Notes under the pieces: generated by a model
What the model saw: only the letters and a program-made list of their open reading frames with translations
Databases searched by the model: none
What the model was told of the DNA's origin: nothing
Program-made: the position numbers and the translations under genes
In this document: in pieces, positions 6,108 to 36,363 of the stretch
How positions within the stretch are numbered: position 1 is the first letter of the stretch
Layout: every line of letters starts with the position of its first letter
From: Candidatus Eiseniibacteriota bacterium
GTDB taxonomy: Bacteria > Eisenbacteria > RBG-16-71-46 > CAIMUX01 > WJJG01
Length of the DNA stretch: 64,000 bases
NCBI GenBank assembly: GCA_030628905.1
Contig: DAOVQB010000001.1
Location: forward strand, 41,375-105,374
Reading direction: 5' to 3'

Positions 6108-6158
6108 CGCCGTGTTGTTTCTAAGATGCTCCCATGATGTCTAATATGTGGAGGGCAG

Positions 6159-6977: not shown

Positions 6978-6988
6978 GGGGAAGCACT

Positions 6989-8338: not shown

Positions 8339-8367
8339 GGTAGCCGCCCGAATAGAAGAGGCTTCAG

Positions 8368-16317: not shown

Positions 16318-18162
16318 CTATCGTAGTAGAATCATCCGGGTAGACTCAACCAATCCGCCATTGATCTTGATCCGGCAGAAGTAGGCCCCGGCGGGGAGCG
16401 CAGCACCGTTCTCGGAGCGGCCATCCCACTGGACTACATGATTGCCGGCAGCCTGCAGTCCGACAAGGAGCAAGCGTAGCAAGCGGCCCTGCAGGTCACA
16501 GATTGCAACTTCCACTTGCGCCTGCTCTGCCAGACGGAAATGTATCGCCGCTCCACGGGACCCCTCCGCGCACGGGTTTGGGACGCATCTCAAGAATCCT
16601 GCATTCTGCACTGCGAACAGATCCTCATCTGCAAGACCTCCGGACTCCACATACTCATCCGCGCCCATATCGGGAGTGACCGGATCCCGGAGATCGTAGT
16701 CTATGTCGGTTGTGATCCCCACGAGCGGGGTTCCTGCTTCGATGCATGCGCTACCGGATTCCAGGTGAAGATCCTCCATATTCAAGCCCGGATCCCCAGA
16801 AAGCGAATGCTCATCTCGTGGCGCATATCCAGGGGCAGCCAGCAAGTCAGCAAGTGTATTGTAGAGCTCAGTGCCGATCATGGCCACAAAGCGGTTATCC
16901 AAAGGCTCCTCGGAATTGACACTCAGGAAATTGTAATCGCTTTCGGCGAATGCATCGGCAGCGTTGATCCTCAAGGCGTAGTGCCCGTCATCAGGATCAC
17001 CACCAGTTCTCTCATTGAGGATGATGTTGTTCTTGAGTTCATGATCGGTGAGTTCCCGTGAAGATCTCAAGCAGTAAGACTTTGTTCCCCTCGTATCAAC
17101 TCCTCCCATGTAAAGCGTATTGTAGAGGAAACGGTTGTTTGTGCCGTCACCTGAAGATATGTTAAGGCAAACGCTGCTGTTAGCTGATATTCCAGGAAAC
17201 AGATAAACGATGTTGTCGTAAACAACATTGCCATCGGAATTCCCGTACAAGTAAATCCCTTTTGAGCCGGACAATTCACTGTGCCTAAGATCGTGGATGT
17301 AATTGTGGTGGATATTAGTGCCGCTGTTAGTTCCGCCGACACTTATGCCATAAACTGAACTGCGAGCCATCTCGAAGGTTTGATAGATCTGATTTCCCTC
17401 TATGTCACAATCAACAACATTCGCATCGAGCTTGATCCCCATCTTCTGCCAGTCCCGGATGGTGTTGCCCGCGATGCGGAAATCGCGAAGTTCCATGCCG
17501 GTGTCGCAGTCGAGGAAAACACCGAAGGTGGAGCCTCCAACGATTTCGCAGTTAGAGAGAATGAAGCTATCCATTCCGAGGGATGGCTGGGGTACTTGAT
17601 AAGTGGAGCAATAGACAGGGGTGGACCAACCACTATCGTAGGGTGGCTCGCTGATGCTGTGGATGATTAGATTGTCTAGGCTGCAGTTATCAGAACCGTT
17701 TGATAGCCAGAAGACGAATACATCATCATCGGCGTTGCGATAGCCGCTGACGGTCATGTTCCTGGTATCCTGAACGGATTCATGGGGGCTGCCATTGAAG
17801 GTGATATGGTCAGAATTGTGGATACGGAAGGCAGAACTGAACTCGCCGGTGATGGTTACGTTGATTGCTACGATAGCATCAACATCGGGGCGAAATACCA
17901 CTGGACTCTCCGAGGTGGCATCAACATCAGAAATGATCAGATTGTCGTTCTCTTCGTAGACGCCATCTCGAATCAGAAAGGTAACGCCGCCATCGCCAAC
18001 GCCCTGCGTGTTGAGGTCCGCGATCGCGTCTTCCAGGGTTGCGTAGTGGGGCGATACGCCGCCAATGTACTTGAGCCCTGTGAGTTGAGCCTCTGCATGG
18101 GGAGGCGCCAGAATGACACAGAAGAGTCCAGCCAACAGCAACGCAAGTCTCTGAATATTCAT
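16318..18162 (-). CDS. Secreted right-handed parallel beta-helix repeat protein with a C-terminal sorting domain
   Basis: A signal peptide 'MNIQRLALLLAGLFCVILAPPHAEA' is present. Repeated 'G.N.I.(H/D)N.I' beta-helix rungs occur, for example 'NIHHNYIHDL', 'GNVVYDNIVY'. The CTD is 'GAYFCRIKINGGLVESTRMILLR'. Confidence 0.7.
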   Translation of the reverse strand: MNIQRLALLLAGLFCVILAPPHAEAQLTGLKYIGGVSPHYATLEDAIADLNTQGVGDGGVTFLIRDGVYEENDNLIISDVDATSESPVVFRPDVDAIVAINVTITGEFSSAFRIHNSDHITFNGSPHESVQDTRNMTVSGYRNADDDVFVFWLSNGSDNCSLDNLIIHSISEPPYDSGWSTPVYCSTYQVPQPSLGMDSFILSNCEIVGGSTFGVFLDCDTGMELRDFRIAGNTIRDWQKMGIKLDANVVDCDIEGNQIYQTFEMARSSVYGISVGGTNSGTNIHHNYIHDLRHSELSGSKGIYLYGNSDGNVVYDNIVYLFPGISANSSVCLNISSGDGTNNRFLYNTLYMGGVDTRGTKSYCLRSSRELTDHELKNNIILNERTGGDPDDGHYALRINAADAFAESDYNFLSVNSEEPLDNRFVAMIGTELYNTLADLLAAPGYAPRDEHSLSGDPGLNMEDLHLESGSACIEAGTPLVGITTDIDYDLRDPVTPDMGADEYVESGGLADEDLFAVQNAGFLRCVPNPCAEGSRGAAIHFRLAEQAQVEVAICDLQGRLLRLLLVGLQAAGNHVVQWDGRSENGAALPAGAYFCRIKINGGLVESTRMILLR

Positions 18163-18501
18163 AGCTGCAATCCTTTCCGCCTAGGGCGTTTGATGTAGCT
18201 CAGTGCTGCAGGCTCCACGCTGGCCCAGTGAGGACCAGTAAGACCGCAACATAATTGTACTACAGGGGTAGGGGAGGAGTCCATGAGCTAGCAGAACAGA
18301 TTGTGGTCGCAAGATTTGATCTGTGGCTGAGGCATTTCTGGTCCGGGAGGGCCCCGCCTACTCGGGGAATTCCTGATGGACCAGGTTGCCATTGCGTTAG
18401 CTGCTCTCAAACAGCTGCCGGAACTCGTGCGTCGAGGAGCTGTGCCTGCCGAGGGTCAGGGAGCGCAAGATGCTTTGCTGTATGCCTCAATGGCATGCGG
18501 G

Positions 18502-20130
18502 CTACTGAAGGAGCTCGTTCTTTACAAACAACGTTCTCTCCGTATTTGGAATATTCATCCTCTTCCAGTCGCAGGTCTCATAATTGTGCAAGAAGTCATG
18601 CCACTCGTCATCTTCCAATAATCTCGATTCGTTTTCTAGTTTTGTGCTGACAACAATCATATTTATTCTCTGCTCATCCAAGAATTCTCGGAAAGCATTC
18701 TTTTTAACGTAAACGCCCACACTACGGAATCTATCGCCAAAATAGATATCATACCCAGGCCGGGCCGCAAGGAGTCTGACTTCCTTTGCGATACTAAGTG
18801 ACCTGATTATGTTGATCGTCTCCATGTTGGCCATGCCTGCATTCAGTGTCAAATGACCTGGGGTATTGTACTCGCAGAGAAAAGGAGTAAAAGACAGTAC
18901 TATGAATGCTGTGAAAAGTTGTTTCATGCCGTTGGGATTCTTGGCCGCATTCCGGAGCACGAGAAGCGCTGCTCCACTGATGAGGAGAGTACACGGAAGC
19001 AGAAGGTAGTGAGTGCGGGGGAAAATAATAATACATGAGACAAGTCCTGGTATGGAGCATAATGCAATGTGCAGCAGGAAAATGCTGCGCTCTTGGATGG
19101 CCTTGTTGAGTCCGATGAACCAATCGTTCTTGAACCGCAATAGAAACGCTATCACAACTGCGGGAAATAGGAGACCCTCGGCTATCCAGAAGATCTTTGG
19201 GGTAATAGGCATGATGATGTTATAGTGAGGGAAAAGTAGTTTCGGAATAGTGAGTGGGGTTCGGAGGATGTTGTAACAAAGGTGATAGAGAAAATATAGA
19301 GGATTGGCCACGAAAGAAGAGAAGATGCTGTGAGCATTACCGAAGTGTTCCGAAGAGATAGTATCCCAATGAGTCCAGGGGTTAAGGTTGGAGTCGGTAC
19401 AAGTTGCCCAGTTTACAGAGAAGTGTTGGCGGAATGCCAGAAAGCTCCTATCGGCTTCTCCAGCAAAAGCAGGCAGGCCAAAGATGGCGATGAGAGCCGA
19501 AGAAGAACAAACAAATATGAGCAGAGCTAGCAGTTCTGAAGAAAAGTGAAATTGTCGGAAATTGCGAACAAGAAGGATGATGTAGAGGATGATCAAAAGC
19601 TCGAATGAGAGGATAAGATTAGGGCAGACGAAAGAAGACAGTAGCGAACCGAGAGAAACTAATAGTGTAGCGATAGTGGGCGATCGAAAGTGAGAGGCGA
19701 GAATGAAGAATGGCAGAAGCGTCAGAAGGGAGAAGTGCACGTACTTCGGGCGTAGAGGAAGATTAGAAAAGGAGATGAGGAAGTAGGCGGAGACGAGTAG
19801 GGCGGCAAGCGGGCGCAACTTGTAGGTTCTGAGGAACACGTAGATAAAGAGGGGAATGGCGATGGTGAGGAGACGATAGTTAAGATAAAAGAGGCTAACG
19901 GGGTCGGGCCGAAGTAGGGATAGCACGAAATACCACAGGGAATAGAGAGGTGCGAGTAGAGGGCCGGGAAGTCCGTGAATGGGGATTTGAAGGCCATTTG
20001 ACAGGTAAACACTTTCATCAGCTAGAACGATGTCCATGAAGCTCTCTAGCGCGAAGGTGAATTTGAAACCTGAGACCAGGAGGATTGCGACAGCAAAGAG
20101 ATCAAACCTGAAGGCGTTGGACTGCTTCAT
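18502..20130 (-). CDS. Polytopic integral membrane protein of low GC, possibly an O-antigen-polymerase or glycosyltransferase-like membrane enzyme, carried on an AT-rich island
   Basis: More than 10 hydrophobic segments are present. GC is markedly lower than in neighbouring genes and codon usage is A/T-rich. No soluble catalytic motif was recognised. Confidence 0.55.
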   Translation of the reverse strand: MKQSNAFRFDLFAVAILLVSGFKFTFALESFMDIVLADESVYLSNGLQIPIHGLPGPLLAPLYSLWYFVLSLLRPDPVSLFYLNYRLLTIAIPLFIYVFLRTYKLRPLAALLVSAYFLISFSNLPLRPKYVHFSLLTLLPFFILASHFRSPTIATLLVSLGSLLSSFVCPNLILSFELLIILYIILLVRNFRQFHFSSELLALLIFVCSSSALIAIFGLPAFAGEADRSFLAFRQHFSVNWATCTDSNLNPWTHWDTISSEHFGNAHSIFSSFVANPLYFLYHLCYNILRTPLTIPKLLFPHYNIIMPITPKIFWIAEGLLFPAVVIAFLLRFKNDWFIGLNKAIQERSIFLLHIALCSIPGLVSCIIIFPRTHYLLLPCTLLISGAALLVLRNAAKNPNGMKQLFTAFIVLSFTPFLCEYNTPGHLTLNAGMANMETINIIRSLSIAKEVRLLAARPGYDIYFGDRFRSVGVYVKKNAFREFLDEQRINMIVVSTKLENESRLLEDDEWHDFLHNYETCDWKRMNIPNTERTLFVKNELLQ

Positions 20131-21451: not shown

Positions 21452-21607
21452 GGGGCCATTCTAGTATGCTTCGCCCGGGGAATCGAGGCTTGGAACGGCC
21501 AATCCTCTTGAGGAAGAGATATGGTATCATTAGTAGTTGGGTTGGCTGGTCATCCTGCATGGCTGGCGGTTCCACGGATCCAGGTCACACACCGAGGGGG
21601 AGCTGCG

Positions 21608-24478
21608 ATGATCACGAGACGCCTTTTGCTGTCAGTCATTTCAATCATGCTGCTCGCTGTGCTATTTGCATGGCCGTTCGCGGCCATGGGCAACGCGACG
21701 CCCTGCGAGGCCATGGGAAGCGCGACGCCCTACGAGGCCATCCCAAGCAGCTCACTTCATTCCCACGTCTTGGGCGCCCAAACGACGGCGCCCACCGGGC
21801 GAATTGCCATCAAGTTCACGGACGAGAGCGGCCTGGTGGTGGAAGGGGGTTGTCTCGATCCCTCATCCCCGCATGCACAGCGCATGACTGATTTCCTTGC
21901 GGCTACCGCCCCGGCCTTCAGCCTACAGCGCCACTTCTCGCGCACCACGGCTGAGCTTGAGGCCGAGCGCCTTTTCGCGGAGCAGCGGGTGGGAGGACGG
22001 CTGCCCAACCTCAATCGCTACGCGCACCTCGATCCCACGCGAGCGGTTTCCCGCGCAGAATTGATGGAGACCTTGGAAGCGTTGCTGACCGATCCGGCTA
22101 TTGAGACTGCTTTCCTAGAGCCGGTGGCGGTGCCAGCCGCGCTCGGGTTTGATGCCTTCCATGGCACCTTCGAGCCGGAGATTCACCTGATGAATTCGCC
22201 GTCGGGCCGGACCCCCGACTTCACCGCTCTCCAAGGCTACCTCGGCCCGGCACCCGATGGCGTGGATGCCGAAGGGGTCTGGGGTATTCCAGGCGGTCGC
22301 GGCCAGACCGTCCAGGTGCTCGATATCGAAGGCGCTTGGCTCTGGGAACATGAGGATCTGCCGGATCCTTTCTTCACGGCCGGCGGCGTAGTCGGGGATC
22401 TGGGCTGGCGCAACCATGGCACAGCCGTTGCTGGCGAGATCCGGGGCACCGCCAACGGCTATGGCGTGAGCGGAATCAGCCATGAGGTGCAGATTGGCGG
22501 TGTCTCCATCGCGGAGCTGTGGGTCGCCGATGCGATCAACACGGCTGCCGCCAATCTGGAGTTGGGCGGCATCTACCTAATAGAGCTTCACGCTCCTGGA
22601 CCCAACGCCACTGGCTCAGGTCAGTTTGGCTACGTATGCATGGAATACTGGCAAGACAACTTCGATGCCATCCAGATCGCCACGGCCTGCGGGCGCATCT
22701 GCTGCGAAGCGGCCGGCAATGGGGAACAGGACCTGGATGCCCCGGTCTATCAGGGCCTGTTTGACCGCAACGTGCGCGACTCAGGCGCGATCATCTGCGG
22801 CGCCTCAAACGGAAGTAGTCTCGATCCCGCCTGGTATACGAACTACGGATCGCGCGTGGATCTTCATGGCTGGGGCTACAGCGTGGTCACCTGCGGCTAC
22901 GGAGATCTGCAAGGTGGGGATGAGGAGGAGTGGTATACCGAATCGTTTGCGGGCACCTCGAGTGCCACGCCGATCGTCACCGGATCAGTGGCTTGCATTC
23001 AGGGATTGGTTAAGGATGCCTTTGGGATCTGTCTGGAAGCCAAACTCGCGCGCGATATCCTGGTAGATACCGGCACGCCGCAGACCGGCAGCCAGCATAT
23101 CGGCCCGCGACCGAACCTGACGGCAGCGTGGTCCTTGGCTCAGAACGGCGTTGGGGCGGTCTATGGTGTGATTACCGACCTGAGCACGGGTCTCCCAGTC
23201 CAGGACGTTTCGGTGGTTGCGCAGGAGACAGGGGCGTTTACACAATCGGCCGCTGACGGCAGCTACTGCCTGCCGTTCCTGGTCGGTACCTATGCGCTTG
23301 ACTATGATTCCTTCTTCTACGAGCCGACTAATGAACTCGTGTCAGTGACCTCCGGGGATAGCACTGAGGTGAATGTGGCTCTGGTACGCAGAGCCACTGC
23401 CGAGATCACAGGGAGAGTCCTAGAGGATGATGCCCACACGCCGCTTGCCGATGTGCGCGTGACTCCACTGGATGTACCCCTGCCGGGCACTGTCACGGGC
23501 CCCGGTGGCTACTGGTTGCTGGAGGGTGTCCCGGTGGATCGAACCTATGGCTTCCTGTTCGACGGGCTGCCCCTCTACGGCGCGGATTTCAGGGAGCTGC
23601 ACGTGGAGGAGGGCGATACTGCCATCGTCGACTTCAACGTACAGCTTGCGCATGTTGCGGAGGATTTCGAGCTGGATGACGGTGGCTTTACAGTCACCGG
23701 CGATCCGATATGGGCCCATGGTACGCCGACAGCGGGCGGGCCTGCGTCCGGCTTCAGCGGCGAGAAGTGCTGGGGCGTTGGAATGGACGACAACTACGGT
23801 GACAATGTATACGGATGCCTGATCAGTCCGGCTTTTGATTTCTCCGGAGAGGAAGAACTGCTGCTCAGCTTCCACTACTGGTGTGAAACCGAATCGGGTT
23901 TTGATGGCGCGAATCTGCAGATCTGGGATGCTGGCACATCCGACTGGGTGACACTGATACCCCTGATGGGCTATCCGACGATAACCATGAGCGGGGTAGG
24001 CTATGAGAGTGGATGGTCCGGATCGACCGGCGGTTGGATCGGGACGGTCTTTGACTTGACCGACTACATCTCCGAGGAGGTGACCTTCCGCGTTCAGTTC
24101 GGCTCTGACGGCGGCCTCAATGACCTGGGCTTCTGGGTGGATGATATTGCTTTCGACACAGGTGATGTCTTTTCTGGAGTGCCTGAGACGGTACTTGAGG
24201 TCGGTTTCGGAATCATGGGCCACGCCCCAAACCCGCTGCATTGCACCACCCGCATTACGCTGGCCCTGCCCAGTTCAGGCGAAGTGAGCGTGGCGGTCTT
24301 TGATGCACCGGGACGGCTGATTCGTACACTCTACGATGGGTCTCTACCTGCGGGCCGCTCGGAGTTGATCTGGGACGGCTGCGATGATCGAGGGGCGCTG
24401 GCTGTCAGTGGCGTCTACTTCATCCGGATGGATGCCAATGGGCGCTCTTCGTCGCGACGGGTCATTCTGACCCGTTAG
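21608..24478 (+). CDS. Secreted subtilisin-like serine protease (S8) with carboxypeptidase-regulatory-like and MAM-like domains and a C-terminal sorting domain
   Basis: The catalytic triad context is D 'VQVLDIEG', H 'NHGTAVAG', S 'GTSSATPIVTG'. A signal peptide 'MITRRLLLSVISIMLLAVLFAWPFAAMG' is present. The CTD is 'GVYFIRMDANGRSSSRRVILTR'. A 27-bp in-frame tandem duplication sits at 21683-21736. Confidence 0.85.
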   Translation: MITRRLLLSVISIMLLAVLFAWPFAAMGNATPCEAMGSATPYEAIPSSSLHSHVLGAQTTAPTGRIAIKFTDESGLVVEGGCLDPSSPHAQRMTDFLAATAPAFSLQRHFSRTTAELEAERLFAEQRVGGRLPNLNRYAHLDPTRAVSRAELMETLEALLTDPAIETAFLEPVAVPAALGFDAFHGTFEPEIHLMNSPSGRTPDFTALQGYLGPAPDGVDAEGVWGIPGGRGQTVQVLDIEGAWLWEHEDLPDPFFTAGGVVGDLGWRNHGTAVAGEIRGTANGYGVSGISHEVQIGGVSIAELWVADAINTAAANLELGGIYLIELHAPGPNATGSGQFGYVCMEYWQDNFDAIQIATACGRICCEAAGNGEQDLDAPVYQGLFDRNVRDSGAIICGASNGSSLDPAWYTNYGSRVDLHGWGYSVVTCGYGDLQGGDEEEWYTESFAGTSSATPIVTGSVACIQGLVKDAFGICLEAKLARDILVDTGTPQTGSQHIGPRPNLTAAWSLAQNGVGAVYGVITDLSTGLPVQDVSVVAQETGAFTQSAADGSYCLPFLVGTYALDYDSFFYEPTNELVSVTSGDSTEVNVALVRRATAEITGRVLEDDAHTPLADVRVTPLDVPLPGTVTGPGGYWLLEGVPVDRTYGFLFDGLPLYGADFRELHVEEGDTAIVDFNVQLAHVAEDFELDDGGFTVTGDPIWAHGTPTAGGPASGFSGEKCWGVGMDDNYGDNVYGCLISPAFDFSGEEELLLSFHYWCETESGFDGANLQIWDAGTSDWVTLIPLMGYPTITMSGVGYESGWSGSTGGWIGTVFDLTDYISEEVTFRVQFGSDGGLNDLGFWVDDIAFDTGDVFSGVPETVLEVGFGIMGHAPNPLHCTTRITLALPSSGEVSVAVFDAPGRLIRTLYDGSLPAGRSELIWDGCDDRGALAVSGVYFIRMDANGRSSSRRVILTR

Positions 24479-27175: not shown

Positions 27176-28359
27176 GGGTGCAAGTCCAGGGTGTTGTGTT
27201 TCTGTGCGATGGCGGTCGCCAACTTGTCCAGCGCCCCGAGATCTTGGTCTTTGGGGTACCCCTGAATCACAACCGGGTCCAACACCTCCGCCTTCAGGTT
27301 GGGGATCATGCCCGCGAGTTGCTGAACCATCTTGCCACCCCAGCCGTAGGACCCGATGATCGATACGAATTTCACCTTGGGCCGCAGGGCGTTCGCCAGG
27401 TAGGTCGCGTGGACGACGGCCGGATGCGCGCCGGTCAGGACGGTGGGCGATCCAATCACGATGGTGGCACAGTCCACCAGCGCCATGGCCAATTCACCAA
27501 TGTCGGTGACGGCCAGGTTGAACAGTTTCACCGTCACCCCTTTATCGACCAGGGCATCCAGCAGGTAGCGAACCATCTCGCGCGTGCTGCCGTGCATCGA
27601 GATGTAGGGCAACACGACGATGTTCTTTGGCTCGTCAAAAACCCAACTGCGGTACGCCTCCAGGATGAATTCGGGCCCATCGTACATCGGGCCGTGGCTG
27701 GGGGCGATGAGAGCGATTTCGTGCCTCTGGACGTTCTCCAGATTCTTTTGGATGATCTTGCGAAACGGCATCATGATTTCGGCATAGTAGCGTTTGGCTG
27801 CTTCATAGGTCAGCCCTTGATCGGTGACGTACAAGTCGGTGGTGGCCAGGTGAGAACCGAATAAGTCGCAGGGAAAGAGGATTTTGTCCTCCCGCAGGTA
27901 GGTTAGCATGGTTTCGGGCCAGTGCACCCACGGCGCGTGGATGAACTCGAGGGTTTTATCGCCCAATGACAATGTTGCGCCATTGTCCACCTTGAGAATG
28001 CGATCTTCCGGGGCCAACCCCATGTCTACCAGCATCCCTTTGCACTTGGGCGTGCAGACAACTTGCGCCTCGCGGTGTCTGGCAAGAATCTGCGGCAGCG
28101 TGCCAGAATGGTCCTGCTCGGCGTGGTTGGCGATGACGTAGTCGATACGCTCCAGGTTCAGGTGGCGTAGACGCTCAAGCAGAACGTGTGACATAGTGGG
28201 ATCAACGGTGTCTATCAGGGCGGTTTTTTCGCTTCCCTGGACCAGGTAGGCGTTGTAACTGGTGCCGTCGGGGAGTGGAGTCAGATCGTCAAACAGCCGA
28301 CGATCCCAGTCAACGGCTCCGACCCAGTAGAGACGGTCCATAATCTTTCTCGGCTTCAT
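27172..28359 (-). CDS. Flavodiiron protein (rubredoxin:oxygen/nitric-oxide oxidoreductase class; metallo-beta-lactamase-like plus flavodoxin domains)
   Basis: The di-iron ligands are 'VIANHAEQDHSG'. The motif 'FPCDLFGSH' is present. The C-terminal flavodoxin-like region is 'IVVLPYISMHGSTREM...SPTVLTGAHP'. Confidence 0.9.
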   Translation of the reverse strand: MKPRKIMDRLYWVGAVDWDRRLFDDLTPLPDGTSYNAYLVQGSEKTALIDTVDPTMSHVLLERLRHLNLERIDYVIANHAEQDHSGTLPQILARHREAQVVCTPKCKGMLVDMGLAPEDRILKVDNGATLSLGDKTLEFIHAPWVHWPETMLTYLREDKILFPCDLFGSHLATTDLYVTDQGLTYEAAKRYYAEIMMPFRKIIQKNLENVQRHEIALIAPSHGPMYDGPEFILEAYRSWVFDEPKNIVVLPYISMHGSTREMVRYLLDALVDKGVTVKLFNLAVTDIGELAMALVDCATIVIGSPTVLTGAHPAVVHATYLANALRPKVKFVSIIGSYGWGGKMVQQLAGMIPNLKAEVLDPVVIQGYPKDQDLGALDKLATAIAQKHNTLDLHP

Positions 28360-28368
28360 GATTGTTCC

Positions 28369-28635
28369 TCACTCTGTTTTCTCGAATATGTCCTTGCCGA
28401 CGCCACATTCGGAACAAACCCAATCATCGGATAGTTCCTGAAATGACGTAGCGAGGACGATACCGCGTGTCCTCGTGGCAAATGCCACGTTGATGACGTC
28501 GAAGCCCTCATCCACCTCGCTCAAGTGGAGAGTGACGGGCCGCCCGGCCCAATTGTGCCAGTAGGCCACGACGATTCGTTCGGGAGCGCATGGGCTCCGG
28601 TAACCAGGCCGAGGCTGCAAAGCAGACTGCAACAA
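28369..28635 (-). CDS. Rubredoxin-like small protein with only the C-terminal CxxCG knuckle conserved
   Basis: The C-terminus '[29 protein letters not shown]' matches the rubredoxin consensus G-I-x-P-G-T-x-F-E-D-L-P-D-D-W-x-C-P-x-C-G-x-x-K-D-x-F. The expected N-terminal CxxCG is replaced ('RPVTL'). The true start is unclear. Confidence 0.4.
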
Positions 28636-28701
28636 GCATGATGCATGATCGCATTGGGGTTTCTCCTGAAATCAGCTACCCCTCGGTGAGCAGCTCATTT
28701 C

Positions 28702-29691
28702 TCACGAGAACTCCACCCCGCACCTGTCGGCGATGCGCCGCGCCAGGACAAGAAAGTCCCTTTCGCAGTCGCGCACAGCCTGCATGTGCGCACCAATTGC
28801 GCGATCGGCAGGCTTCAGGTGAAACATCGGTTTGCGGGCCTCCATGGCGAGCGGCATCAGGCTGCGGTAATGCTTCAGCGTGGCTAGTTTCTGCTCATCC
28901 TGTTCCATGGCCGGCGCATCAGTTGCCCGGTCTCCAAGAACCGAGAACCGATACTCGCCGGGGATGCGATCCATCCAGCGCGAGTAGGCTTGTACCGGAC
29001 GGTCGAGCCGCACCGCGTGCTGTAGCACGACGTAGCCCGCGGGCTGCATCTCGCCCTTCGGTAGGTCCAACTCGGGTTCGGGGTTCTTGTCATAACGCTC
29101 TTGCCACTCCTCACGCCATTTGCGAAGCGTCGGGCCAAGGTTGCGAAGGCCCTGGAGGGAGAAGAGGTCGGGAGCCAAAGGAACCACCACGTGCTCGGCC
29201 GCGATGAGGGCAGCGCGGTTGATGGCGCCCAGGTTCGGGCCGACATCGATCAGGAGCAGATCCGCTTCGCGATCCATTACCGCCATAGCCATCAGACGGT
29301 GGAAGGCCGAAATGACGCGGAATGCGGCTACCTGCCGGTCAAGGCAGTTCGGCCACTCGCGCGAGAGCCGATCCTCGAAGGTGGACAGCCCCAGATCGCC
29401 GATAACGAGCCCCAAGTCATCGGCGATGTCTTCCACATGAGGTAGAGAGACGTCTCCAGTTCCGTCGAGCATCGGCTGTACGGCCCCCAGCACGGTATCG
29501 GGATGCTTTCCGTCCGGCCATAGATCCTCCAGCCGTTCCTCCGCGAGGAACATGGAGCTGAGGTTGGCCTGAGGGTCCAGATCGGCTGCCAGGACCCGGA
29601 CTCCACGGTTCGCGAACATCCATGCCAGGTGGTAGACGAGCGTGGTCTTGCCGACACCACCCTTATTATTGAACAAGGCGATGGTCGTCAT
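28702..29691 (-). CDS. ParA/MinD-superfamily P-loop ATPase with an extended C-terminal region of about 100 aa
   Basis: The deviant Walker A is 'NNKGGVGKTTLVYHLA'. 'ADLDPQANLS' and the Walker B region 'LLLIDVGPNLG' are present. The start ATG overlaps the stop of the upstream AlbA_2 gene (ATGA). Confidence 0.8.
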   Translation of the reverse strand: MTTIALFNNKGGVGKTTLVYHLAWMFANRGVRVLAADLDPQANLSSMFLAEERLEDLWPDGKHPDTVLGAVQPMLDGTGDVSLPHVEDIADDLGLVIGDLGLSTFEDRLSREWPNCLDRQVAAFRVISAFHRLMAMAVMDREADLLLIDVGPNLGAINRAALIAAEHVVVPLAPDLFSLQGLRNLGPTLRKWREEWQERYDKNPEPELDLPKGEMQPAGYVVLQHAVRLDRPVQAYSRWMDRIPGEYRFSVLGDRATDAPAMEQDEQKLATLKHYRSLMPLAMEARKPMFHLKPADRAIGAHMQAVRDCERDFLVLARRIADRCGVEFS

Positions 29692-30869
29692 GGGTGCCTC
29701 CGGATGGTCGTGAGCACTGCCGTGTCCTGGAAATCGAACTCGGGGGGCGGATTGCCATTGTCTGCAAGAGCCTTTCTCGCCATTGGGATGCCCACACCGA
29801 AGCGTTGGATATACCCGAGCACGGCCAGGGCTTCAGCGACGAGGGGATTGCGGTAGTCCGTGACCCCTGTACCGAAGTTCTCCGGCGTAACCTGGCCGTA
29901 TAACCCGCCGGGGCTGTGGATCTCCACTCGGTCGGAAAACCAGTAGACATGCACGGGCGCGTTGCTCGTCTCGTAGTTGCGGTGGACCAGGGCGTTGCGA
30001 ACAAGTTGCTGCAATGCAACGGCCGCATAGTCTGGCTGCCGCTTCTCGCGCGCACCCGAAGTGATATCGGTCGCGACTGAGATGTTCAAATCGATAAGAT
30101 CATCAAGCTGTCGCGCAACCTCGTTCAAGGGGCCAACAAGGCGCTTCTGATGCTTGATTGGATCAGCCAGCTCCGTACCGTCGATGCCAAGAAACTGGAT
30201 ATACGCACTTGGAATCCAGCGGAGAGGGTCTCTCCCCGCCACGAGCACGGCACCATAGCATGGTGTCTCGCCGGTGATGAGTCGAAGTGAGGCAAGCTGC
30301 TGCTTGACGTGCCAGTCGTTCGCTGTCAGGACCTCTTCTGCGAATGCGGAGGGCAAATACTCCCGCTGTAGAAAATTGAGGTCGAGGTCGTCGAGCGTGG
30401 CGTCGAGGGCCCGCCGGCGATCGAAAGGAAGATCCGCCGCGCGCCGTCGCTCGATGAGACGCCGCTCATTGTCGGGCGTTGCTTCACGCGTGCTCGGCCC
30501 CACACGTACCCAGCAACGACCCTGGTAGCGAACAGGTGGGTCGCGCGAGGGGTCCACCTGGACAATCGCCACTTTGCAGCCATCGAGAACTCGCTGGTCG
30601 ACTTCCATCGAGGGAATCGGGAGAATCCCACTGTTGCGCATGTCAGCCAGAAGTTTCAGAAGGTCATCATCGATCTCGATGTTCGCACAGGTTCCGTCAT
30701 TCTCGACGCCGACAAAGACAATGCCCGGTTTGCCATCACCGGGAAGATCATTCGCGAACGCACAAATCGCCTTGCGGATAGCGCTGCGGTCCCCTGCAGT
30801 CCGCTTCCGCTCAGCACTTGGCGATTCCAGGTCCTTCAACAGATCGAGAAGTCGGGCATCGTCAAGCAT
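29688..30869 (-). CDS. AlbA_2 (Schlafen-like 'divergent AAA') plus HATPase_c_4 two-domain protein, a COG2865-type putative transcriptional regulator/ATP-binding protein
   Basis: The N-terminus is 'LLDLLKDLESPSAERKRT...IRKAICAFANDLPGDGKPGIVFVGVENDGT' (AlbA_2). The C-terminus is 'LQQLVRNALVHRNYETSNAPVHVYWFSDRVEIHSPGGL' (HATPase_c_4 / RecG-C-like). Confidence 0.75.
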   Translation of the reverse strand: MLDDARLLDLLKDLESPSAERKRTAGDRSAIRKAICAFANDLPGDGKPGIVFVGVENDGTCANIEIDDDLLKLLADMRNSGILPIPSMEVDQRVLDGCKVAIVQVDPSRDPPVRYQGRCWVRVGPSTREATPDNERRLIERRRAADLPFDRRRALDATLDDLDLNFLQREYLPSAFAEEVLTANDWHVKQQLASLRLITGETPCYGAVLVAGRDPLRWIPSAYIQFLGIDGTELADPIKHQKRLVGPLNEVARQLDDLIDLNISVATDITSGAREKRQPDYAAVALQQLVRNALVHRNYETSNAPVHVYWFSDRVEIHSPGGLYGQVTPENFGTGVTDYRNPLVAEALAVLGYIQRFGVGIPMARKALADNGNPPPEFDFQDTAVLTTIRRHP

Positions 30870-31257
30870 GGCTGGTCTCCCTCCTTGCAGCGCTAGTCAT
30901 CTTAGTGGCCCTCCGTGTTCAAGGCTAGTGGTAGGACCACCCCGGACAGCCTAGTGCGGTGTGTCATGCCTTGAATCATCCAGCGCTCCCCAGGTATTTT
31001 CCAGCCAAATGGTGTGATCCGTAACTATTTGGAAATACAGGGATTACCTCGCATCCTGTGTATTGGATCGGCTGGGAATTGGCTAGGCTGTACCGATTCG
31101 GAGCCAAACGAACCAATCAAGCGATCTGTGTTCTTCGCCGGTTGTCATCACAAGGGTTCCCCCACAGCTCGACCTCAGCCCTACAGCGCCACCAGTCGCT
31201 CTCCGTGGCACGCCAACCACGCCTTGAGGGCCGTGAGTGGCTCGCAGGGCGCGGTTT

Positions 31258-34200
31258 TCAGCGCAGAAACAGCATGCGTTGGCACTGTTGCCGGCCGTCG
31301 GCTTCCAGCACATAGAAATAGACACCGCTGCCCACATGGCGGGCGCCAGCATCGCGGCCGTTCCAGCTACACAGGTGTTGCCCGCGCGGCATGGGGCCGT
31401 GGATCAATGTGCGCAGGAGACGTCCATTGGCATCGAAAACCTGCAGGCGTACGTTCGACGGTCTGGGTAGGTCGAATCGGATGCGTGCACAGGCATCTTC
31501 TGTGCCGAATGGGTTTGGACTGCTCTGGTGCAGCGCCAGGCAGGTAGGTAGCGCGGATGTGTCCCCAACCCCGGCAGCGCCGGGCGTGGAAGTGAAGACT
31601 TGTACATCATCGATGTACCAGCCATCTCCGAAGGCGGCATAGTCGCTCCCGAAACGGAAGCGTAGTTGCACCGTGCCCGTTACGCCCTCGATTGAGAAGC
31701 AGGCTTCCTGCCAGTCGAATGTGCCAGAGTAGAACGGCAACTCGGATGGGAAGGGCCCCGGCCCCTGCGGACGGTTGCGCACGAGGTTCGGATAACCGCC
31801 GACCGGTGAGATGTGTGTCCAGTCGCCGCCATCCACGGATATCTCGATTAGGCCTCCGTCATAGCCATAGGGTGGATACCAGGCACTGTCCTCCGCGTCC
31901 ATCCAGTGCCAGAAGGTCAATTCGCTGTTGCCCGCGAGCGGGAAGGGTTCGCTCACCAGGGCGCCGTCGGCGAAGGGCTCGTAATCACCGCCACTGTCAT
32001 CGCCGAATTTCCAGGCCCAGTTGCCGCCCGGTGTATGGTTCTCCTCCTCTGACAGATGCCATTGGTCCACGAAATCCTCCGTGACCACGTAGTGCGTCCA
32101 GGCGCCGGTCCCGCCTTCCATATCATCCGTGAAGAGCACTGGAAGAATCCAGAAGGCATAGATCTCCTCCGGCGGGTTGGGAGGATCGGTTGAGGCATTG
32201 CCGCCCACGTCGCGACCGCTGAGGTAGTAGTGGACCAAGGTGGTGTAGGGCTGGCCGGGAATGGAAGCCTTGTAGATGTTATCCCCCTGCTCCTCCAGCG
32301 GAATCGTCATCCATCCGCTGCCATTTGCGTTGTAGATCAGTGAGAGCTCTTCGAAATCTGAGTATTCAATGACGGTGGAGTAGATGTCATAGGGCCCTTG
32401 TGTGTCGGGGGTACTCGGGTAGTCAGTCGTTGCGCTGAAGGTTGGCGGCAGGGTGTCCTGGAGTGCGAAATTGATATTCGTCGCTTGCTCTTCGGCGATG
32501 ACAACCGCCCAGGCTGTGTCAGGGGCGAAGCTGGGATGCCGCGCGACTACCGTGTAGGTTCCCACCAGGACGCCGCCGCTATAGATCCCGTTCGAAGCGG
32601 CCGTCAACTGCTCACCGCTTTCAAGAAGATGGACAGTGGCCTGCCCCAAAGGAGTGCCACCGTTGGTATCGTTGGTGATCATCCCGGCGAGAGTTCCTCT
32701 CGGCTGGCAGGTGAGTGTGAGGAACTTGATGGCCCGTCCGCTTTGGATGAGTCTCCCGCCTGCGTTGTAGTAACCATAGTAGCTGTACATCAAGCCGTCG
32801 GTTTGATCTCCATTCTCGATTCCGACCGTACAGTAGTGCTGGATATGGTCGCTGTTGTTGAAGGTATCGTACTGGAAGAGGATGACGCCGTCACCGGTAG
32901 GAGTTGGGTAGTGGATCGGATCGTAGAGGATAGCCTCGAAATTCTGAACGGTGTTGCCTAGACGGTTTTTCACGCGGGCCCATTGAACAATGTAGCGGTG
33001 GTTGTCGGCGTCAAACCAATGATAGACCGTGTTGCTTCCGGAGGGATAGAGATCGTCCCACATGGGTGCGATCATGTAGTTGGGTGCACCGGCTGCCGGG
33101 ATGTTCCAATTGCGGCGATTGGTCAAGTATGTTGAGCCCATGGCCATCCATCCATTCGAGCAGATCGTGGCGCGCGTGAATGTCTCGCCGTAGTAAGTGA
33201 ATGGGAACGGCAGATCGATCGTCTCTGATTTTTCGTCTGTCATCGCCAGGGAGCTCCCGCTGCCCCCGTGGTTGGGATCGAGCTCGATCCATTCATAGGT
33301 GGGTGCTTGAGGGAAGGCGAGATCGGTATCGTCGAAGGCATAGTAGCCATAGGCGTCCGCTCCTGTCGGATCGTCCGCGTTTGGAGTGCCGATAGGCAAG
33401 GCCAAGTGGACCGTGTCCGTGAGCCCGCTGGAGAACTGCAGGGCGAGCACCATGGGAGCGATATGGCCGTTATAGCAGTAATTGGAAACAGTCAGGCCGA
33501 AGCGGTCTGCCGTGTTTTCCCCCACTGAATCCGCAGGGATTATCCCAAAGGATCCGTATCCATCGTCGACCGTCACCCACGGACTTTCGGAAATCAGGGC
33601 TCCGGTAACGCTGCTGGCTCCCGCACCGCCGAGGTTCAGGATCCGCACACTGATCTCCCCAGTCTCTCCCGGATCGATAGTGTCGCCAAAGCCCCATAGA
33701 GTAACGCCGTCGCAAGCGAAGTCGGCCGAAACAACTTGGATTTCGAGGAGTGCATGCCAGCTATCAGCCCCCGACTGCAGCTCCAGTCCCAAACGGATCA
33801 GGTGGCCATGTGGCGCGGCCGGGTCGATATGAATGTCGAAATCATCCTCGCTCCAGGCCGTTTCGCCACTGGGGATGTCACCGAAGGCTTCGGTGGCGTC
33901 GAGAATCGTGGTGTAGGGGTCGCCCGCAGCGGTGAGGGTGCCGGTTACTTCCGTGGCGACTTGAGTGCCGAAGTTCTCGACCAGCACCGGGATCTCAATC
34001 GTCTCGCCTGGATTGGGCACGTGGTCGCGGTTCCCGTTGCTGGATCCGAGCGTGTCATCGTCGATCAGATGTGTGTTGTAGGCGACATGTCTTTCGTGCT
34101 GCGTCACATTGATGGCTGCCAGATAGGGGTGGTGATCATGCTTGGTCACAGTGAGCTTCATCTCGCCCTCGGAGGGCGTGGTGACTGGCAGCTCGATAGA

Positions 34201-36363
34201 GCCGTCGGCGCAGGTGTATCCTCCCACGTGCGTGCATCCCTCCATCCAAAGGCAGACATATGCCTCCTCGCAGGGGAGACCATCGGCCGTGACGTGAATC
34301 GTCACGGTATTCGTTCCGATGGGGAGTTGTGTGGGGTGATCAACCTCGATGGCCTGCGGAACAGCGGTCCAGAGCTCGCCAGCCGAATCGCCCATCAGGT
34401 TGTTCCAATGTGAATAGGTTCGTACAGCCCCCATGTTGGCTTCAGCATAGTTGACATAAAGTTCGTACTTGGCGCGCGTTAGGGCAGCGCCGAAGTGAAA
34501 CATGTTTTCCCAGAAGATGCCCCGCCAAATGCCATAGACCACACAGTTGTTGTAGCGGGTGTGCGTGCCCGTTGTTGCGGTTCCGATACTGGCAATGCCC
34601 CCGGTCGGAGTGTTGGGGGGTACGCCGGCGCGGATCCATGCCTCGCTGCGCGCCAGGCCCTGGTTGAAGGAACCGGTGTCACAGGTAAGATTGACCGCGA
34701 AGGGCATCTTCCAGCCGTTTTGCAAGGCCAGGATGTGTCCCGTGCTGAAGCCGCTCATGTTGTAATAGCCGCGGTAGCTGAAGACAGTGTCGCCGCGATT
34801 AATGCAGTTGCGGATGCCACTGACCCAGGGCGATGTGAAAACAGTGTCAATATCTGCGTAGCCGTAGGAGCTAAGTCGCGTCTTGAGCCACTGCGCGATT
34901 TGAATGCAGGTATATCCGGAATAGGAGGGGTCGCCCACGAGACATGCGCGCGTATACCAATCCGTCTCCGCCATATAGGGAGTGCTTTCATAGCCAACGA
35001 TCTTGGTGACATAAAGCTGCAGGCCATCGACCGAGTCGACGGAGATGCGGCCGATGTGGGCATCGGGGAGCAGATCGTCTCCATCGAGCTTGACATAGGG
35101 GTGGTCGGCCGATCCGCCTCCGTAGAGCCAACAGGGGATCGATATATCGCCATTGGCATCTCCGATAAGTGTGATGTATTCAGGCGGGTTGTCCCAAGTT
35201 GCATAGGCGAACCTGAGCCAGTCTTGAATGTCTTCCTTGCTTGCTCCGGTCTCCGTGGTCGTTACCAGGTGGACTTCGTAGCCCTTGCGTGCACGCCATT
35301 CAACGAGCGGTTCGAGGGCGGCAAGGATTTCGGGGTCATCCGGACAGATGATGACATAGGTTCCCAGGGAGACGACTTGAGCGTTGCGAGAGCCCGTATG
35401 GCTGCAAGAACCCGTATAGTTAACGACCAAGTTGCGGTAGAGCTGATCAAAGGAAGAGGAGAGGACCGGATGAATGCGGGGCGCGCTGTTGCGCACGTCT
35501 TGGCCGGAGAATGTGATCTGGATCTGGATGCGCGTGGCGACCTCGAGGGTTTCTCGGGCAGGGTCATAGCGGACCGGGTGGATGGTGATCGGCACCACCC
35601 GCAGGCCGCGTGCGATTGCCGGGTCCCCCAGGTGCGCCCACTGCGCTGGATGATCGGCCGCAGGAGCATCGGCAGCATAGGCATTGCGATTGATGACGAA
35701 GCCTGATGCCTCATCGGGCTGTACTGGTAGGGGCCGGAAACCGGCAACCTCTGTTGTCTCTAGGCTCACAATCTCAAGGTGGGCGGCAACGCAAGCGGGG
35801 ATCTCAATCAGCCGGGAGAAGGACGGAAGCATCGGTGCACCCACCTGACCGGTGAAACCGCCACCCCCGATCTCCAGGATGGGGAAGCTCCCGGCCTCGA
35901 TCTGCAGGACGTGAAAGGTCTCGCCCGCGATCTCCAGTGGGAGGGCATGTAGGGAGGGCAGCTCGAACTCGAGCACAAGACCCTCTTCTATCGAACCAAG
36001 CGTGTGAATGGAGGGCGTCTCCTGCCGACTTGAAGCCCTGGAGAGAAGTGCAAGTTCCCTGTACTTGGGAGCGGCAGTAACGCGAGGGACAGTTGGGACG
36101 CAGGGCGCGAGCTGCTGCCGCAAGGCGCTTGCAAGCAGCGTCGGGATCTTGGATCCGCCCGGGTCAGTGACCATGGAGTCAGCGTGCGGTGAAGTACCAG
36201 CGTTCACGGACGACCCGCCGGATGCAAGGGTTGTGGTCGTCAGTATGGCAATGGCAAGGGGCGTCAGGCGCCGATGCATGTGTTCCTCCCGAGCGGAAGT
36301 GACCTGGGCCAAAAGGGGGGGAGCAGAAGCCCAGCATGAGCCAAGGCAACCGATTTCATACAA
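31258..36363 (-). CDS. Giant (1701 aa) secreted peptidase C25 (gingipain-like) multidomain protein with a C-terminal sorting domain
   Basis: The signal peptide is 'MHRRLTPLAIAILTTTTLASGGSSVNA'. The C25 core carries 'YITLIGDANGD...GRISVDS', 'YRGYYNMSGFSTGH' (His region) and 'AVNLTCDTGSF' (Cys region). Multiple beta-sandwich-like domains follow. The CTD is 'GVYFYVLEADGRQQCQRMLFLR'. Confidence 0.8.
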   Translation of the reverse strand: MYEIGCLGSCWASAPPLLAQVTSAREEHMHRRLTPLAIAILTTTTLASGGSSVNAGTSPHADSMVTDPGGSKIPTLLASALRQQLAPCVPTVPRVTAAPKYRELALLSRASSRQETPSIHTLGSIEEGLVLEFELPSLHALPLEIAGETFHVLQIEAGSFPILEIGGGGFTGQVGAPMLPSFSRLIEIPACVAAHLEIVSLETTEVAGFRPLPVQPDEASGFVINRNAYAADAPAADHPAQWAHLGDPAIARGLRVVPITIHPVRYDPARETLEVATRIQIQITFSGQDVRNSAPRIHPVLSSSFDQLYRNLVVNYTGSCSHTGSRNAQVVSLGTYVIICPDDPEILAALEPLVEWRARKGYEVHLVTTTETGASKEDIQDWLRFAYATWDNPPEYITLIGDANGDISIPCWLYGGGSADHPYVKLDGDDLLPDAHIGRISVDSVDGLQLYVTKIVGYESTPYMAETDWYTRACLVGDPSYSGYTCIQIAQWLKTRLSSYGYADIDTVFTSPWVSGIRNCINRGDTVFSYRGYYNMSGFSTGHILALQNGWKMPFAVNLTCDTGSFNQGLARSEAWIRAGVPPNTPTGGIASIGTATTGTHTRYNNCVVYGIWRGIFWENMFHFGAALTRAKYELYVNYAEANMGAVRTYSHWNNLMGDSAGELWTAVPQAIEVDHPTQLPIGTNTVTIHVTADGLPCEEAYVCLWMEGCTHVGGYTCADGSIELPVTTPSEGEMKLTVTKHDHHPYLAAINVTQHERHVAYNTHLIDDDTLGSSNGNRDHVPNPGETIEIPVLVENFGTQVATEVTGTLTAAGDPYTTILDATEAFGDIPSGETAWSEDDFDIHIDPAAPHGHLIRLGLELQSGADSWHALLEIQVVSADFACDGVTLWGFGDTIDPGETGEISVRILNLGGAGASSVTGALISESPWVTVDDGYGSFGIIPADSVGENTADRFGLTVSNYCYNGHIAPMVLALQFSSGLTDTVHLALPIGTPNADDPTGADAYGYYAFDDTDLAFPQAPTYEWIELDPNHGGSGSSLAMTDEKSETIDLPFPFTYYGETFTRATICSNGWMAMGSTYLTNRRNWNIPAAGAPNYMIAPMWDDLYPSGSNTVYHWFDADNHRYIVQWARVKNRLGNTVQNFEAILYDPIHYPTPTGDGVILFQYDTFNNSDHIQHYCTVGIENGDQTDGLMYSYYGYYNAGGRLIQSGRAIKFLTLTCQPRGTLAGMITNDTNGGTPLGQATVHLLESGEQLTAASNGIYSGGVLVGTYTVVARHPSFAPDTAWAVVIAEEQATNINFALQDTLPPTFSATTDYPSTPDTQGPYDIYSTVIEYSDFEELSLIYNANGSGWMTIPLEEQGDNIYKASIPGQPYTTLVHYYLSGRDVGGNASTDPPNPPEEIYAFWILPVLFTDDMEGGTGAWTHYVVTEDFVDQWHLSEEENHTPGGNWAWKFGDDSGGDYEPFADGALVSEPFPLAGNSELTFWHWMDAEDSAWYPPYGYDGGLIEISVDGGDWTHISPVGGYPNLVRNRPQGPGPFPSELPFYSGTFDWQEACFSIEGVTGTVQLRFRFGSDYAAFGDGWYIDDVQVFTSTPGAAGVGDTSALPTCLALHQSSPNPFGTEDACARIRFDLPRPSNVRLQVFDANGRLLRTLIHGPMPRGQHLCSWNGRDAGARHVGSGVYFYVLEADGRQQCQRMLFLR

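Follow-up and report, generated by a model that had tools for sequence, protein, structure and literature searches.

The subject of this report is a pair of adjacent, overlapping genes found in a window of 64,000 nucleotides (the whole stretch of DNA analyzed) from a Candidatus Eiseniibacteriota bacterium. Both genes lie on the minus strand, as do all their features given below. Gene 1 (29688-30869) is an open reading frame (ORF) of 393 amino acids, coding for a Schlafen-GHKL protein; gene 2 (28702-29691), an ORF of 329 amino acids, codes for a ParA/MinD-type ATPase with a deviant Walker A motif. An initial annotation, made from the sequence alone, had placed the two ORFs at these positions and indicated their co-translation through an ATGA overlap, and both points are borne out. 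At the coupling junction (29688-29701), which reads GGAGGCACCCATGACG, the ATGA at 29688-29691 is at the same time the start of gene 2 and the stop of gene 1, giving a 4-nt overlap, while a GGAGG (29697-29701), located inside the end of gene 1, lies 5 nt ahead of the ATG of the ParA gene. Upstream of gene 1 a non-coding leader of 388 bp (30870-31257) is found, matching the gap of about 390 bp initially reported; it ends with a Shine-Dalgarno sequence, AAGGAGG (30880-30886), 10 nt ahead of the ATG. The promoter of gene 1 presumably lies within this leader; no sigma-70-like site was found in it, and an Rfam scan of the leader and of the surroundings of the pair gave no match.

The domains initially assigned to the two proteins, AlbA_2 and HATPase_c_4 for gene 1, a ParA-type domain with a KGGVGKTT motif for gene 2, are confirmed by Pfam search. 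In gene 1, SLFN_AlbA_2 (PF04326) covers residues 15-130 (30480-30827; E=2e-15, 57.8 bits against a cut-off of 25.3), and HATPase_c_4 (PF13749), part of the GHKL domain, covers residues 304-386 (29712-29960; E=3.8e-19, above cut-off). Relatives of the protein number in the thousands, are 57-63% identical to it and mostly 393-398 amino acids long. Residue conservation was scored over about 150-157 homologs of each of the two proteins. The predicted catalytic motif of the Schlafen domain, Ex4ExK, reads E15-S-P-S-A-E20-R-K22 (30804-30827): E15 is kept in 149 out of 149 homologs and E20 in 151 out of 151, while position 22 is K in 121 and T in 30. The SAFAN motif, a Schlafen hallmark, has here the form C36-A-F-A-N40-D41 (30747-30764), with N40 kept in 151 out of 151 homologs, D41 in 150 and C36 in 148. 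Ex4(E/D)xK is the experimentally defined site of Schlafen tRNA nucleases, both in CbCash (E17/D22/K24; PMC13462974) and in a survey of prokaryotic Schlafens, or pSlfn (bioRxiv 10.1101/2025.07.24.666596); SAFAN has been named as the second hallmark of the family (bioRxiv 10.64898/2026.05.29.728809). The AlphaFold model of the domain (residues 1-140) has a predicted local distance difference test score (pLDDT) of about 90, and its Foldseek matches are 3lmm, 2kyy, SLFN11/13/14/5/12 and the tRNA nuclease domain of SAMD9. By analogy with these proteins, the SLFN_AlbA_2 domain of gene 1 is most likely a tRNA endonuclease.

The GHKL half of the protein is modeled with a pLDDT below 50; this part of the model is unreliable and was not used. 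The family profile of gene 1, in turn, matches the GHKL region of PDB entry 3lmm. In the resulting alignment the N-box ALQQLVRNALVHRNY (residues 285-299, 29973-30017) corresponds to AVREAMLNAMIHRDW of 3lmm, and the position of the catalytic Glu (E in REAMLN of 3lmm, E314 in RzAgo) is occupied by Q288. Q is found at this position in 125 out of 155 homologs and E in the other 30; the Asn which binds Mg/ATP, N292, is kept in all 155. The E314A mutant of RzAgo binds ATP without hydrolysing it (bioRxiv 10.64898/2026.05.29.728809). Because of this analogy, and of general GHKL enzymology, the GHKL domain of the Q288 clade probably binds ATP without efficient hydrolysis: Q288 makes hydrolysis less likely, but leaves ATP binding and the assignment to the GHKL fold untouched. 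PF13749 ends at residue 386 of 393, seven residues before the stop, and gene 1 accordingly lacks a C-terminal helix-turn-helix (HTH). The initial proposal that gene 1 might be the DNA-sensing or DNA-binding adaptor of the ParA-like ATPase does not agree with these features, as the protein keeps the tRNA nuclease site and the SAFAN motif, and is devoid of an HTH.

Not all homologs share the catalytic residues of the window copy. A minority clade, indicated as clade II (about 30 out of 157 gene 1 homologs, about 20% of the pairs), has T22 (ExxxxERT) together with a retained GHKL Glu; its ParA partner is equally conserved. Examples, among the gene 1 homologs L011-L178, are L021, L033, L018 and L070. 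The change from Glu to Gln in the GHKL domain was considered as a universal mark of ParA-linked Schlafens, and rejected, as this clade keeps the Glu.

For gene 2, Pfam reports AAA_31 at residues 1-197 (E=1.4e-27) and CbiA. The deviant Walker A motif, within NNKGGVGKTT, is N8-N-K10-G-G-V-G-K15-T16 (29644-29670), with K10 as the signature Lys and K15 as the catalytic one; Walker A', or switch I, is D37-L-D39-P-Q41 (29569-29583), and Walker B is L145-L-L-I-D149-V-G-P-N153 (29233-29259), residues 145-150 forming a beta strand in the AlphaFold model. Among the homologs, K10 is kept in 146 out of 152, K15 in 149 out of 153, G14 in 153 out of 153, D37 in 153 out of 153, D39 in 152 out of 153 and D149 in 152 out of 152. 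To judge from these motifs, the product should be an active ATPase.

The initial annotation had described an unusual C-terminal extension of about 100 amino acids in this protein; the whole of its 329 residues, instead, makes up one ParA fold. The AlphaFold model (pLDDT 90.1, predicted template modeling score 0.90) is matched by Foldseek with probability 1.00 to 3pg5, Soj, ParA, McdA and MinD, in each case along its entire length and best of all to 3pg5; the family profile matches the same PDB entry over residues 1-320 (E=5e-37), and the family alignment is conserved end to end, including, in the C-terminal half (residues 198-329, 28705-29100), the motifs GYVxLQHAxRLDRP, HYRSLMP and KPADGAIGAH. 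Because of the full-length model, the 3pg5 profile and the family alignment, residues 198-329 are seen to complete the ParA fold, and no terminal add-on domain is present. Pfam models of the ParA type stop near residue 197, and the approximately 70 residues in excess of Soj are insertions scattered through the protein. Gene 2 belongs to a distinct, long ParA-like subfamily (3pg5/DIP2308-like), of about 330 amino acids, whose only solved member, 3pg5, is the uncharacterised DIP2308 protein of C. diphtheriae; at E<=1e-30 the subfamily includes 538 clusters at 50% identity. Close relatives of the window protein number in the thousands (327-350 amino acids, 64-81% identical), and their hosts include Planctomycetota, SAR324, KSB1, Chloroflexota, Nitrospirota, Myxococcota, Verrucomicrobiota and Acidobacteriota. 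The nearest solved structures to the two proteins, 3pg5 (DIP2308) and 3lmm (DIP2311), both belong to C. diphtheriae and bear neighboring locus tags, and were considered as a possible, anciently linked pair; they are about 7 kb and seven unrelated genes apart, and the linkage was discarded as a coincidence.

The association of the two genes was evaluated in both directions. A scan by tblastn (E<=1e-3) of one genome per species gave at least 575 matches to the ParA-like protein, some perhaps to other ParA families; the genome counts reported here refer to the best 80 of them, which cover over 15 phyla. In every one of the 80 loci the gene immediately preceding ParA is a homolog of gene 1 or what remains of it (79 at the first threshold, plus L083, which contains a short remnant). 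In 73 of the 80 the two genes overlap by NTGA, so the overlap seen in the window is not due to chance, and the coupling initially predicted from it gains support. For the reverse test, 80 loci were collected from metagenome contigs searched with gene 1: in all the 64 with enough room the ParA gene is directly downstream; among the other 16, 15 end at the contig edge and one contains a partial ParA gene, stopping 9 nt from the contig end. Absence of ParA beside gene 1 is therefore seen in none of the metagenome loci able to show it. Three loci with distant ParA homologs feature the same order, SLFN_AlbA_2/HATPase_c_4 and then ParA, with a 4-nt overlap, each in different surroundings. The pairing, expected from the initial annotation to be conserved, is essentially obligate. 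When all flanking ORFs were clustered, no third conserved gene was found; a 92-aa ORF, which follows ParA in L001-L003, was considered as a candidate and discarded, being found nowhere else.

The pair has a patchy, cross-phylum distribution: ParA identity is 56-71%, the flanks differ at nearly every locus and the chromosomal positions are scattered. The two genes differ in the way they decay. In 8 of the 80 genome loci gene 1 carries a frameshift or an interruption, or survives only as a remnant, beside a ParA gene that still matches over nearly its full length, while a damaged ParA beside an intact gene 1 is seen in 0 out of 65 loci (Fisher p=0.0085; some of the eight lesions may be indel errors of long-read metagenome-assembled genomes, and a conservative count of 5 out of 80 gives p=0.065). 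True remnants of gene 1 are found in L058 and L083. Such an asymmetric decay is expected if the nuclease is harmful without its partner. In L058, moreover, a gene for a Cas3-like HD-helicase (6005-8350, minus strand), identified from sequence only, adjoins the 98-aa C-terminal remnant of gene 1, ParA being intact.

A physical or functional complex of the two products is suggested, by a Rosetta-stone argument, by protein P0384 (731 amino acids), in which SLFN_AlbA_2, HATPase_c_4 and a ParA-like domain are found in a single chain. Coupling, an intact nuclease site, asymmetric decay and this fusion would all fit a two-gene module made of a putative toxin and a putative neutralising or controlling partner.

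Distant ParA-like proteins of the long subfamily (26-33% identical to that of the window over about 95% of the length) are coupled to effectors of other types. ParA-like proteins of 330-349 amino acids followed by SIR2 are encoded at L094 (3905-6916), L179 (4001-5856), L180 (4001-5889) and L098 (8001-9892); the overlap is again of 4 nt in Salmonella, Vibrio ponticus and Spirosoma, while in Paeniglutamicibacter 80 nt separate the two genes. The two SIR2 proteins scanned, from Salmonella and Paeniglutamicibacter, match defence models of the ThsA/Dsr/LmuA type. In Salmonella the pair is preceded by a DNA methyltransferase gene, and no copy of the methyltransferase-ParA-SIR2 region is found in 5,426 E. 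coli genomes. PADLOC v2 contains no model for ParA-like and SIR2 proteins as a system. In P0471 (545 amino acids) a ParA-like domain with a degenerate P-loop is fused to a C-terminal RES domain. A constant NTPase whose effectors can be exchanged is what typically marks a conflict system. A further protein, P0371 (595 amino acids), contains a ParA-like domain, also with a degenerate P-loop, and an unannotated C-terminal region of about 250 residues, with a possible PD-(D/E)xK-like motif.

The pair could be a system for DNA partition or positioning, where the AlbA_2 protein would act as a ParB-like DNA adaptor for ParA: the ParA fold is genuine, its ATPase motifs are intact, AlbA-type domains are able to bind nucleic acid, and weak, sub-threshold matches to "partition protein" entries are found in PHROGs and NCBIfam. 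The NCBIfam partition models score far below their cut-offs for gene 2 (RepA, for example, 75 against 348 bits). No centromere-like repeats are present in 28300-31300, where the only repeats found are short two-copy chance matches, and no parB, HTH or ribbon-helix-helix partner is found in any locus: the only conserved neighbor is the Schlafen-GHKL gene, whose conserved nuclease residues would serve no purpose in an adaptor. Among 72,556 plasmids, and among viral contigs, members of the close family are almost never found, and the Vibrio plasmid carrying a related ParA-like/SIR2 pair has in addition a separate, canonical ParA-ParB. Linkage of the ParA gene to a parB or a centromere, which had been indicated as contrary to the proposed module, is thus not observed at the loci examined, and a partition role appears extremely improbable.

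A minority of the pairs is found within known defence operons. At least 9 out of 80 genome loci and at least 9 out of 80 metagenome loci (about 11%) lie inside operons of Hma, a BREX-related system with DUF499, in the order HmaA-pair-HmaB-HmaC, where HmaB often starts 5-15 nt after ParA. Schlafen-His-kinase-wHTH proteins, containing a winged HTH (wHTH), have been listed as backup suicidal effectors of BREX and BR loci (PMC12839542). Hits to DrmD, BrxH, DpdE, mad2 and mad3, also obtained near the pairs, involve the same few proteins (4-5) as the HmaA/HmaB hits, and were read as these Hma helicases and methylases, each fitting more than one model. Enrichment in defence islands had also been suggested by neighbors scored by PADLOC as "AriA/AAA_21"; these are mostly ABC transporters, and the defence-island signal rests therefore mainly on Hma/BR. 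In the Hma operon of L001, the pair is followed by the 92-aa ORF (6987-7265) and by a CAP12-PCTIR gene of the TIR type (7413-8120), then by HmaB, so that a single operon holds three candidate effectors of different kinds.

The defence-island location initially suggested for the pair holds for about 11% of the loci and fails for the window copy, which is located among housekeeping genes. On the contig, no defence or mobility genes are found within 10 kb of the pair, nor are HmaA (helicase), HmaB (DUF1156 methylase) or HmaC (DUF499 ATPase) present within +/-10 kb.

Such surroundings could suit a pair devoted to housekeeping or regulation, outside of any conflict: for example to stress RNA turnover, or as a COG2865-type transcriptional regulator with a positioning ATPase. 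Annotation as transcriptional regulators is routine for relatives with a C-terminal wHTH, defence genes are missing beside most loci and the GC content of the pair matches that of the surrounding genome. Yet gene 1, where PF13749 reaches almost to the C-terminus, lacks an HTH, and its nuclease motifs are invariant; the spread across phyla is patchy, with high identity and non-syntenic flanks, pseudogenised copies are common, and toxin domains (SIR2 or RES) are the partners of related ATPases. A role of this kind is accordingly regarded as quite unlikely, although not to the same extent as partition.

The tight overlap and the asymmetric decay may be read in a further way, as those of an addiction or stress module similar to toxin-antitoxin systems: the Schlafen protein would be the toxin, neutralised by the ParA-like ATPase, and the pair would be kept because its loss, or that of the ATPase, is harmful, with no dedicated anti-phage role. 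In most loci the overlapping genes are indeed solitary among housekeeping genes, the nuclease decays first and the ATPase is never lost alone; RES and SIR2, found coupled to relatives of the ATPase, are classic toxin domains. On the other hand, the pair is repeatedly and tightly embedded in Hma/BR defence operons, all prokaryotic Schlafens experimentally characterised to date act in phage defence, and an ATPase of 329 amino acids with intact catalytic motifs would be an unusually costly antitoxin. Toxin-antitoxin and abortive-infection systems overlap in practice, and the two explanations differ mainly in what selects for the pair. An addiction module, taken on its own, seems a rather unlikely explanation.

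The reading best supported by the whole of the data, in keeping with the defence or conflict role first put forward, is that the pair is a self-contained, horizontally mobile, two-gene conflict module, probably an abortive-infection defence; it is judged somewhat more probable than its contrary. In this module gene 1 would supply the effector, an endoribonuclease of the Schlafen type whose substrate is most likely tRNA; it is fused with a GHKL domain, and ATP binding to the latter would drive assembly of the active nuclease oligomer, as in related proteins. The ParA-type ATPase, made in fixed proportion to the nuclease through translational coupling, would be complexed with it and act as its switch: in the uninfected cell it would keep the nuclease latent, in an antitoxin- or scaffold-like manner, while an infection cue, sensed via the ATP-dependent dimer state of ParA, would lead to release or licensing of the nuclease. 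Foreign or altered DNA, a phage protein or a nucleotide change are possible cues. Once activated, the nuclease would stop translation, resulting in abortive infection. Pairing, coupling, intact catalytic motifs, the three-domain fusion, the different effectors beside related ATPases and the location in Hma/BR operons are observed; we infer that tRNA is the substrate, that the two proteins form a complex, which of them controls the other, what triggers the response and that the outcome is protection against phages. With respect to the initial annotation the roles are probably reversed, the Schlafen-GHKL protein being the effector and the ParA-like protein the regulator or sensor; the latter is also, more plausibly, the possible DNA-binding part, and may substitute for the DNA-binding wHTH of other Schlafen-GHKL proteins.

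A number of observations weigh against an abortive-infection module. About 85-90% of the loci, that of the window included, are surrounded by ordinary genes for metabolism, transport or signalling; phage contigs yielded the pair at only one locus, and just one out of 72,556 plasmid records contains a match above 60% identity. The GC content of the window pair equals that of its surroundings, leaving no compositional trace of recent transfer. PADLOC-DB v2.0.0 gives partial matches only: gene 1 matches Aga_SIR2-PNTD and pAgo models by virtue of the GHKL/SLFN module it has in common with them, ParA matches PDC-M28B in the P-loop only, and no system model is matched full-length by both proteins. 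The mirror-tree correlation of the two proteins is moderate (r=0.39, the permutation maximum being 0.15), and the lesion counts of gene 1 may depend in part, as indicated, on sequence quality. Clade II differs in its catalytic residues, T replacing K22 and the GHKL Glu being kept as two coupled changes, so that catalytic details vary within the family. Only 2 out of 7 tested pSlfn genes were active, the DUF262-Slfn and Slfn-Ig fusions (Taboada et al., bioRxiv 10.1101/2025.07.24.666596).

A wider proposal may be advanced more tentatively, as a possibility falling somewhat short of an even chance. Long ParA-like ATPases of the 3pg5/DIP2308 type could be unrecognised infection sensors or regulators, controlling interchangeable toxic effectors (Schlafen tRNA nucleases, SIR2 and RES NADases) and perhaps reading the state of DNA or of the nucleoid; in that case two-gene defence systems of this kind would make up a new family, with the Schlafen-ParA pair as its most widespread member. 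The known role of ParA/MinD ATPases is in positioning, and control by them of toxic immune effectors such as Schlafen, SIR2 and RES, if true, would widen the roles of the superfamily, while a compact two-gene system would be added to the defence catalogue and to annotation tools. Schlafen nucleases represent a tRNA-targeting antiviral mechanism common to bacteria and humans, and Schlafen-GHKL is their commonest bacterial form, its share of prokaryotic Schlafens ranging from about a third to more than half; its activation is understood only in RzAgo, where it is fused to an Argonaute. A large, cross-phylum Schlafen-GHKL clade, always accompanied by a dedicated ParA-type ATPase, offers a testable candidate for the sensor or regulator. 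Cloning such genes without their partner could be one cause of negative results.

As to the surroundings of the pair, a protease on one side and a stress-detoxification operon on the other had been initially reported: a C25 peptidase gene lies upstream of gene 1, according to the annotation of the neighbors, and genes for a flavodiiron protein and an NADH:rubredoxin-type oxidoreductase are downstream of the ParA gene. No tRNA, known-RNA or integrase landmarks were found around the pair. Between the ParA and flavodiiron genes an ORF of 88 amino acids (28369-28635, minus strand), uncalled in the public record, ends with a rubredoxin-like knuckle, while the N-terminal CxxCG half is absent in every frame; it may be a rubredoxin gene, cut short upon insertion of the two-gene cassette.

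Elsewhere in the window, the stretch 17000-20100 has a GC content of 0.48-0.51, against about 0.60 in the rest, with strong GC and AT skew at 19-20 kb. Encoded there are a multi-pass membrane protein of 542 residues, unmatched in Pfam (18502-20130, minus strand), and a portion of a secreted protein of 614 residues; the stretch could be of foreign origin, or its composition may just result from hydrophobic coding. Very large secreted proteins, including an S8 and a C25 peptidase, are encoded at 21521-24478 (plus strand), 31258-36363 (minus strand) and 16318-18162 (minus strand). The large secreted proteins bear C-terminal sorting domains of the FlgD_ig/type IX secretion system (T9SS) type, which suggests that the contig comes from a T9SS-bearing uncultured lineage.

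The pair may finally be compared with known systems. The SLFN and GHKL module was named "Schlatpase" in 2026, in a study where RzAgo, a fusion of Schlafen and prokaryotic Argonaute (pAgo), is described as an ATP-assembled tRNA nuclease giving phage defence; most Schlatpases are small and stand-alone, with or without an HTH (bioRxiv 10.64898/2026.05.29.728809). The corresponding class in the pSlfn survey, pSlfn-HisKinase, makes up 34% of 5,930 prokaryotic Schlafens (Taboada et al., bioRxiv 10.1101/2025.07.24.666596), and ATPase-containing Schlafens are reported near BREX, restriction-modification (RM) and CRISPR systems (Cash paper, PMC13462974; BREX paper, PMC12839542). No ParA-type partner is mentioned in this literature on Schlatpase, pSlfn, Cash and BREX. 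Targeted literature searches, which took in only a minor part of the papers in subscription journals, so that a prior description is possible, returned no description of a pair formed by Schlafen/AlbA_2 and ParA, or by ParA-like and SIR2 proteins; together with the lack of a PADLOC v2 model, this agrees with the initial view of the pair as undescribed among named systems.

Gene 1 has the same architecture as Schlatpase/pSlfn-HisKinase proteins, PF04326 followed by PF13749, with Ex4ExK, SAFAN and the Asn of the N-box. The clade of the window differs in adding an obligate ParA-type partner gene, in lacking any wHTH, pAgo, NACHT or RM fusion, and in the presence of Gln at the position of RzAgo E314 in about 80% of its members, including the window copy. 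With the backup effectors of BREX/BR loci about 11% of the pairs share the niche, being located in Hma/BR operons between helicase and methylase; those effectors, in contrast, are single genes with a wHTH (PMC12839542), while the pair has no wHTH and a ParA-like gene always follows. Most copies of the pair, that of the window included, are solitary and far from BREX/BR genes.

Two systems acting on tRNA would be similar in logic rather than in fold. PARIS, composed of AriA, an ABC-type ATPase, and AriB, a TOPRIM tRNA nuclease, acts by abortive infection; the analogy lies in an ATPase sensor or scaffold controlling a latent tRNA-cleaving effector, the two being encoded by separate genes. The folds are unrelated: ABC/AAA_15-21 against ParA/MinD for the ATPase, TOPRIM against Schlafen for the nuclease. 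PrrC/RloC are likewise tRNA nucleases regulated by an NTPase, and can sit in a DNA-modification defence operon as a second line; PrrC, however, combines NTPase and nuclease, of different folds, in one polypeptide, whereas the pair consists of two genes, mostly independent of RM-like systems.

With ParA/Soj, MinD and McdA, gene 2 shares the fold, the signature Lys of the deviant Walker A motif, Walker A' and Walker B, and its product presumably forms, by analogy, an ATP-dependent sandwich dimer. Unlike ParABS, MinDE and McdAB, it has no partner of the ParB, MinE or McdB type and no centromere; its close family is nearly absent from plasmids, and the partners of its subfamily are effectors of the toxin type. 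The modules formed by ParA-like and SIR2 proteins contain the same long ParA-like subfamily, are as tightly coupled (4-nt overlap in 3 out of 4 loci) and are found in mobile or defence contexts. They differ from the pair in that the effector is a predicted NADase, not an RNase, the order is reversed, with ParA first, and some fused versions have a degenerate P-loop.

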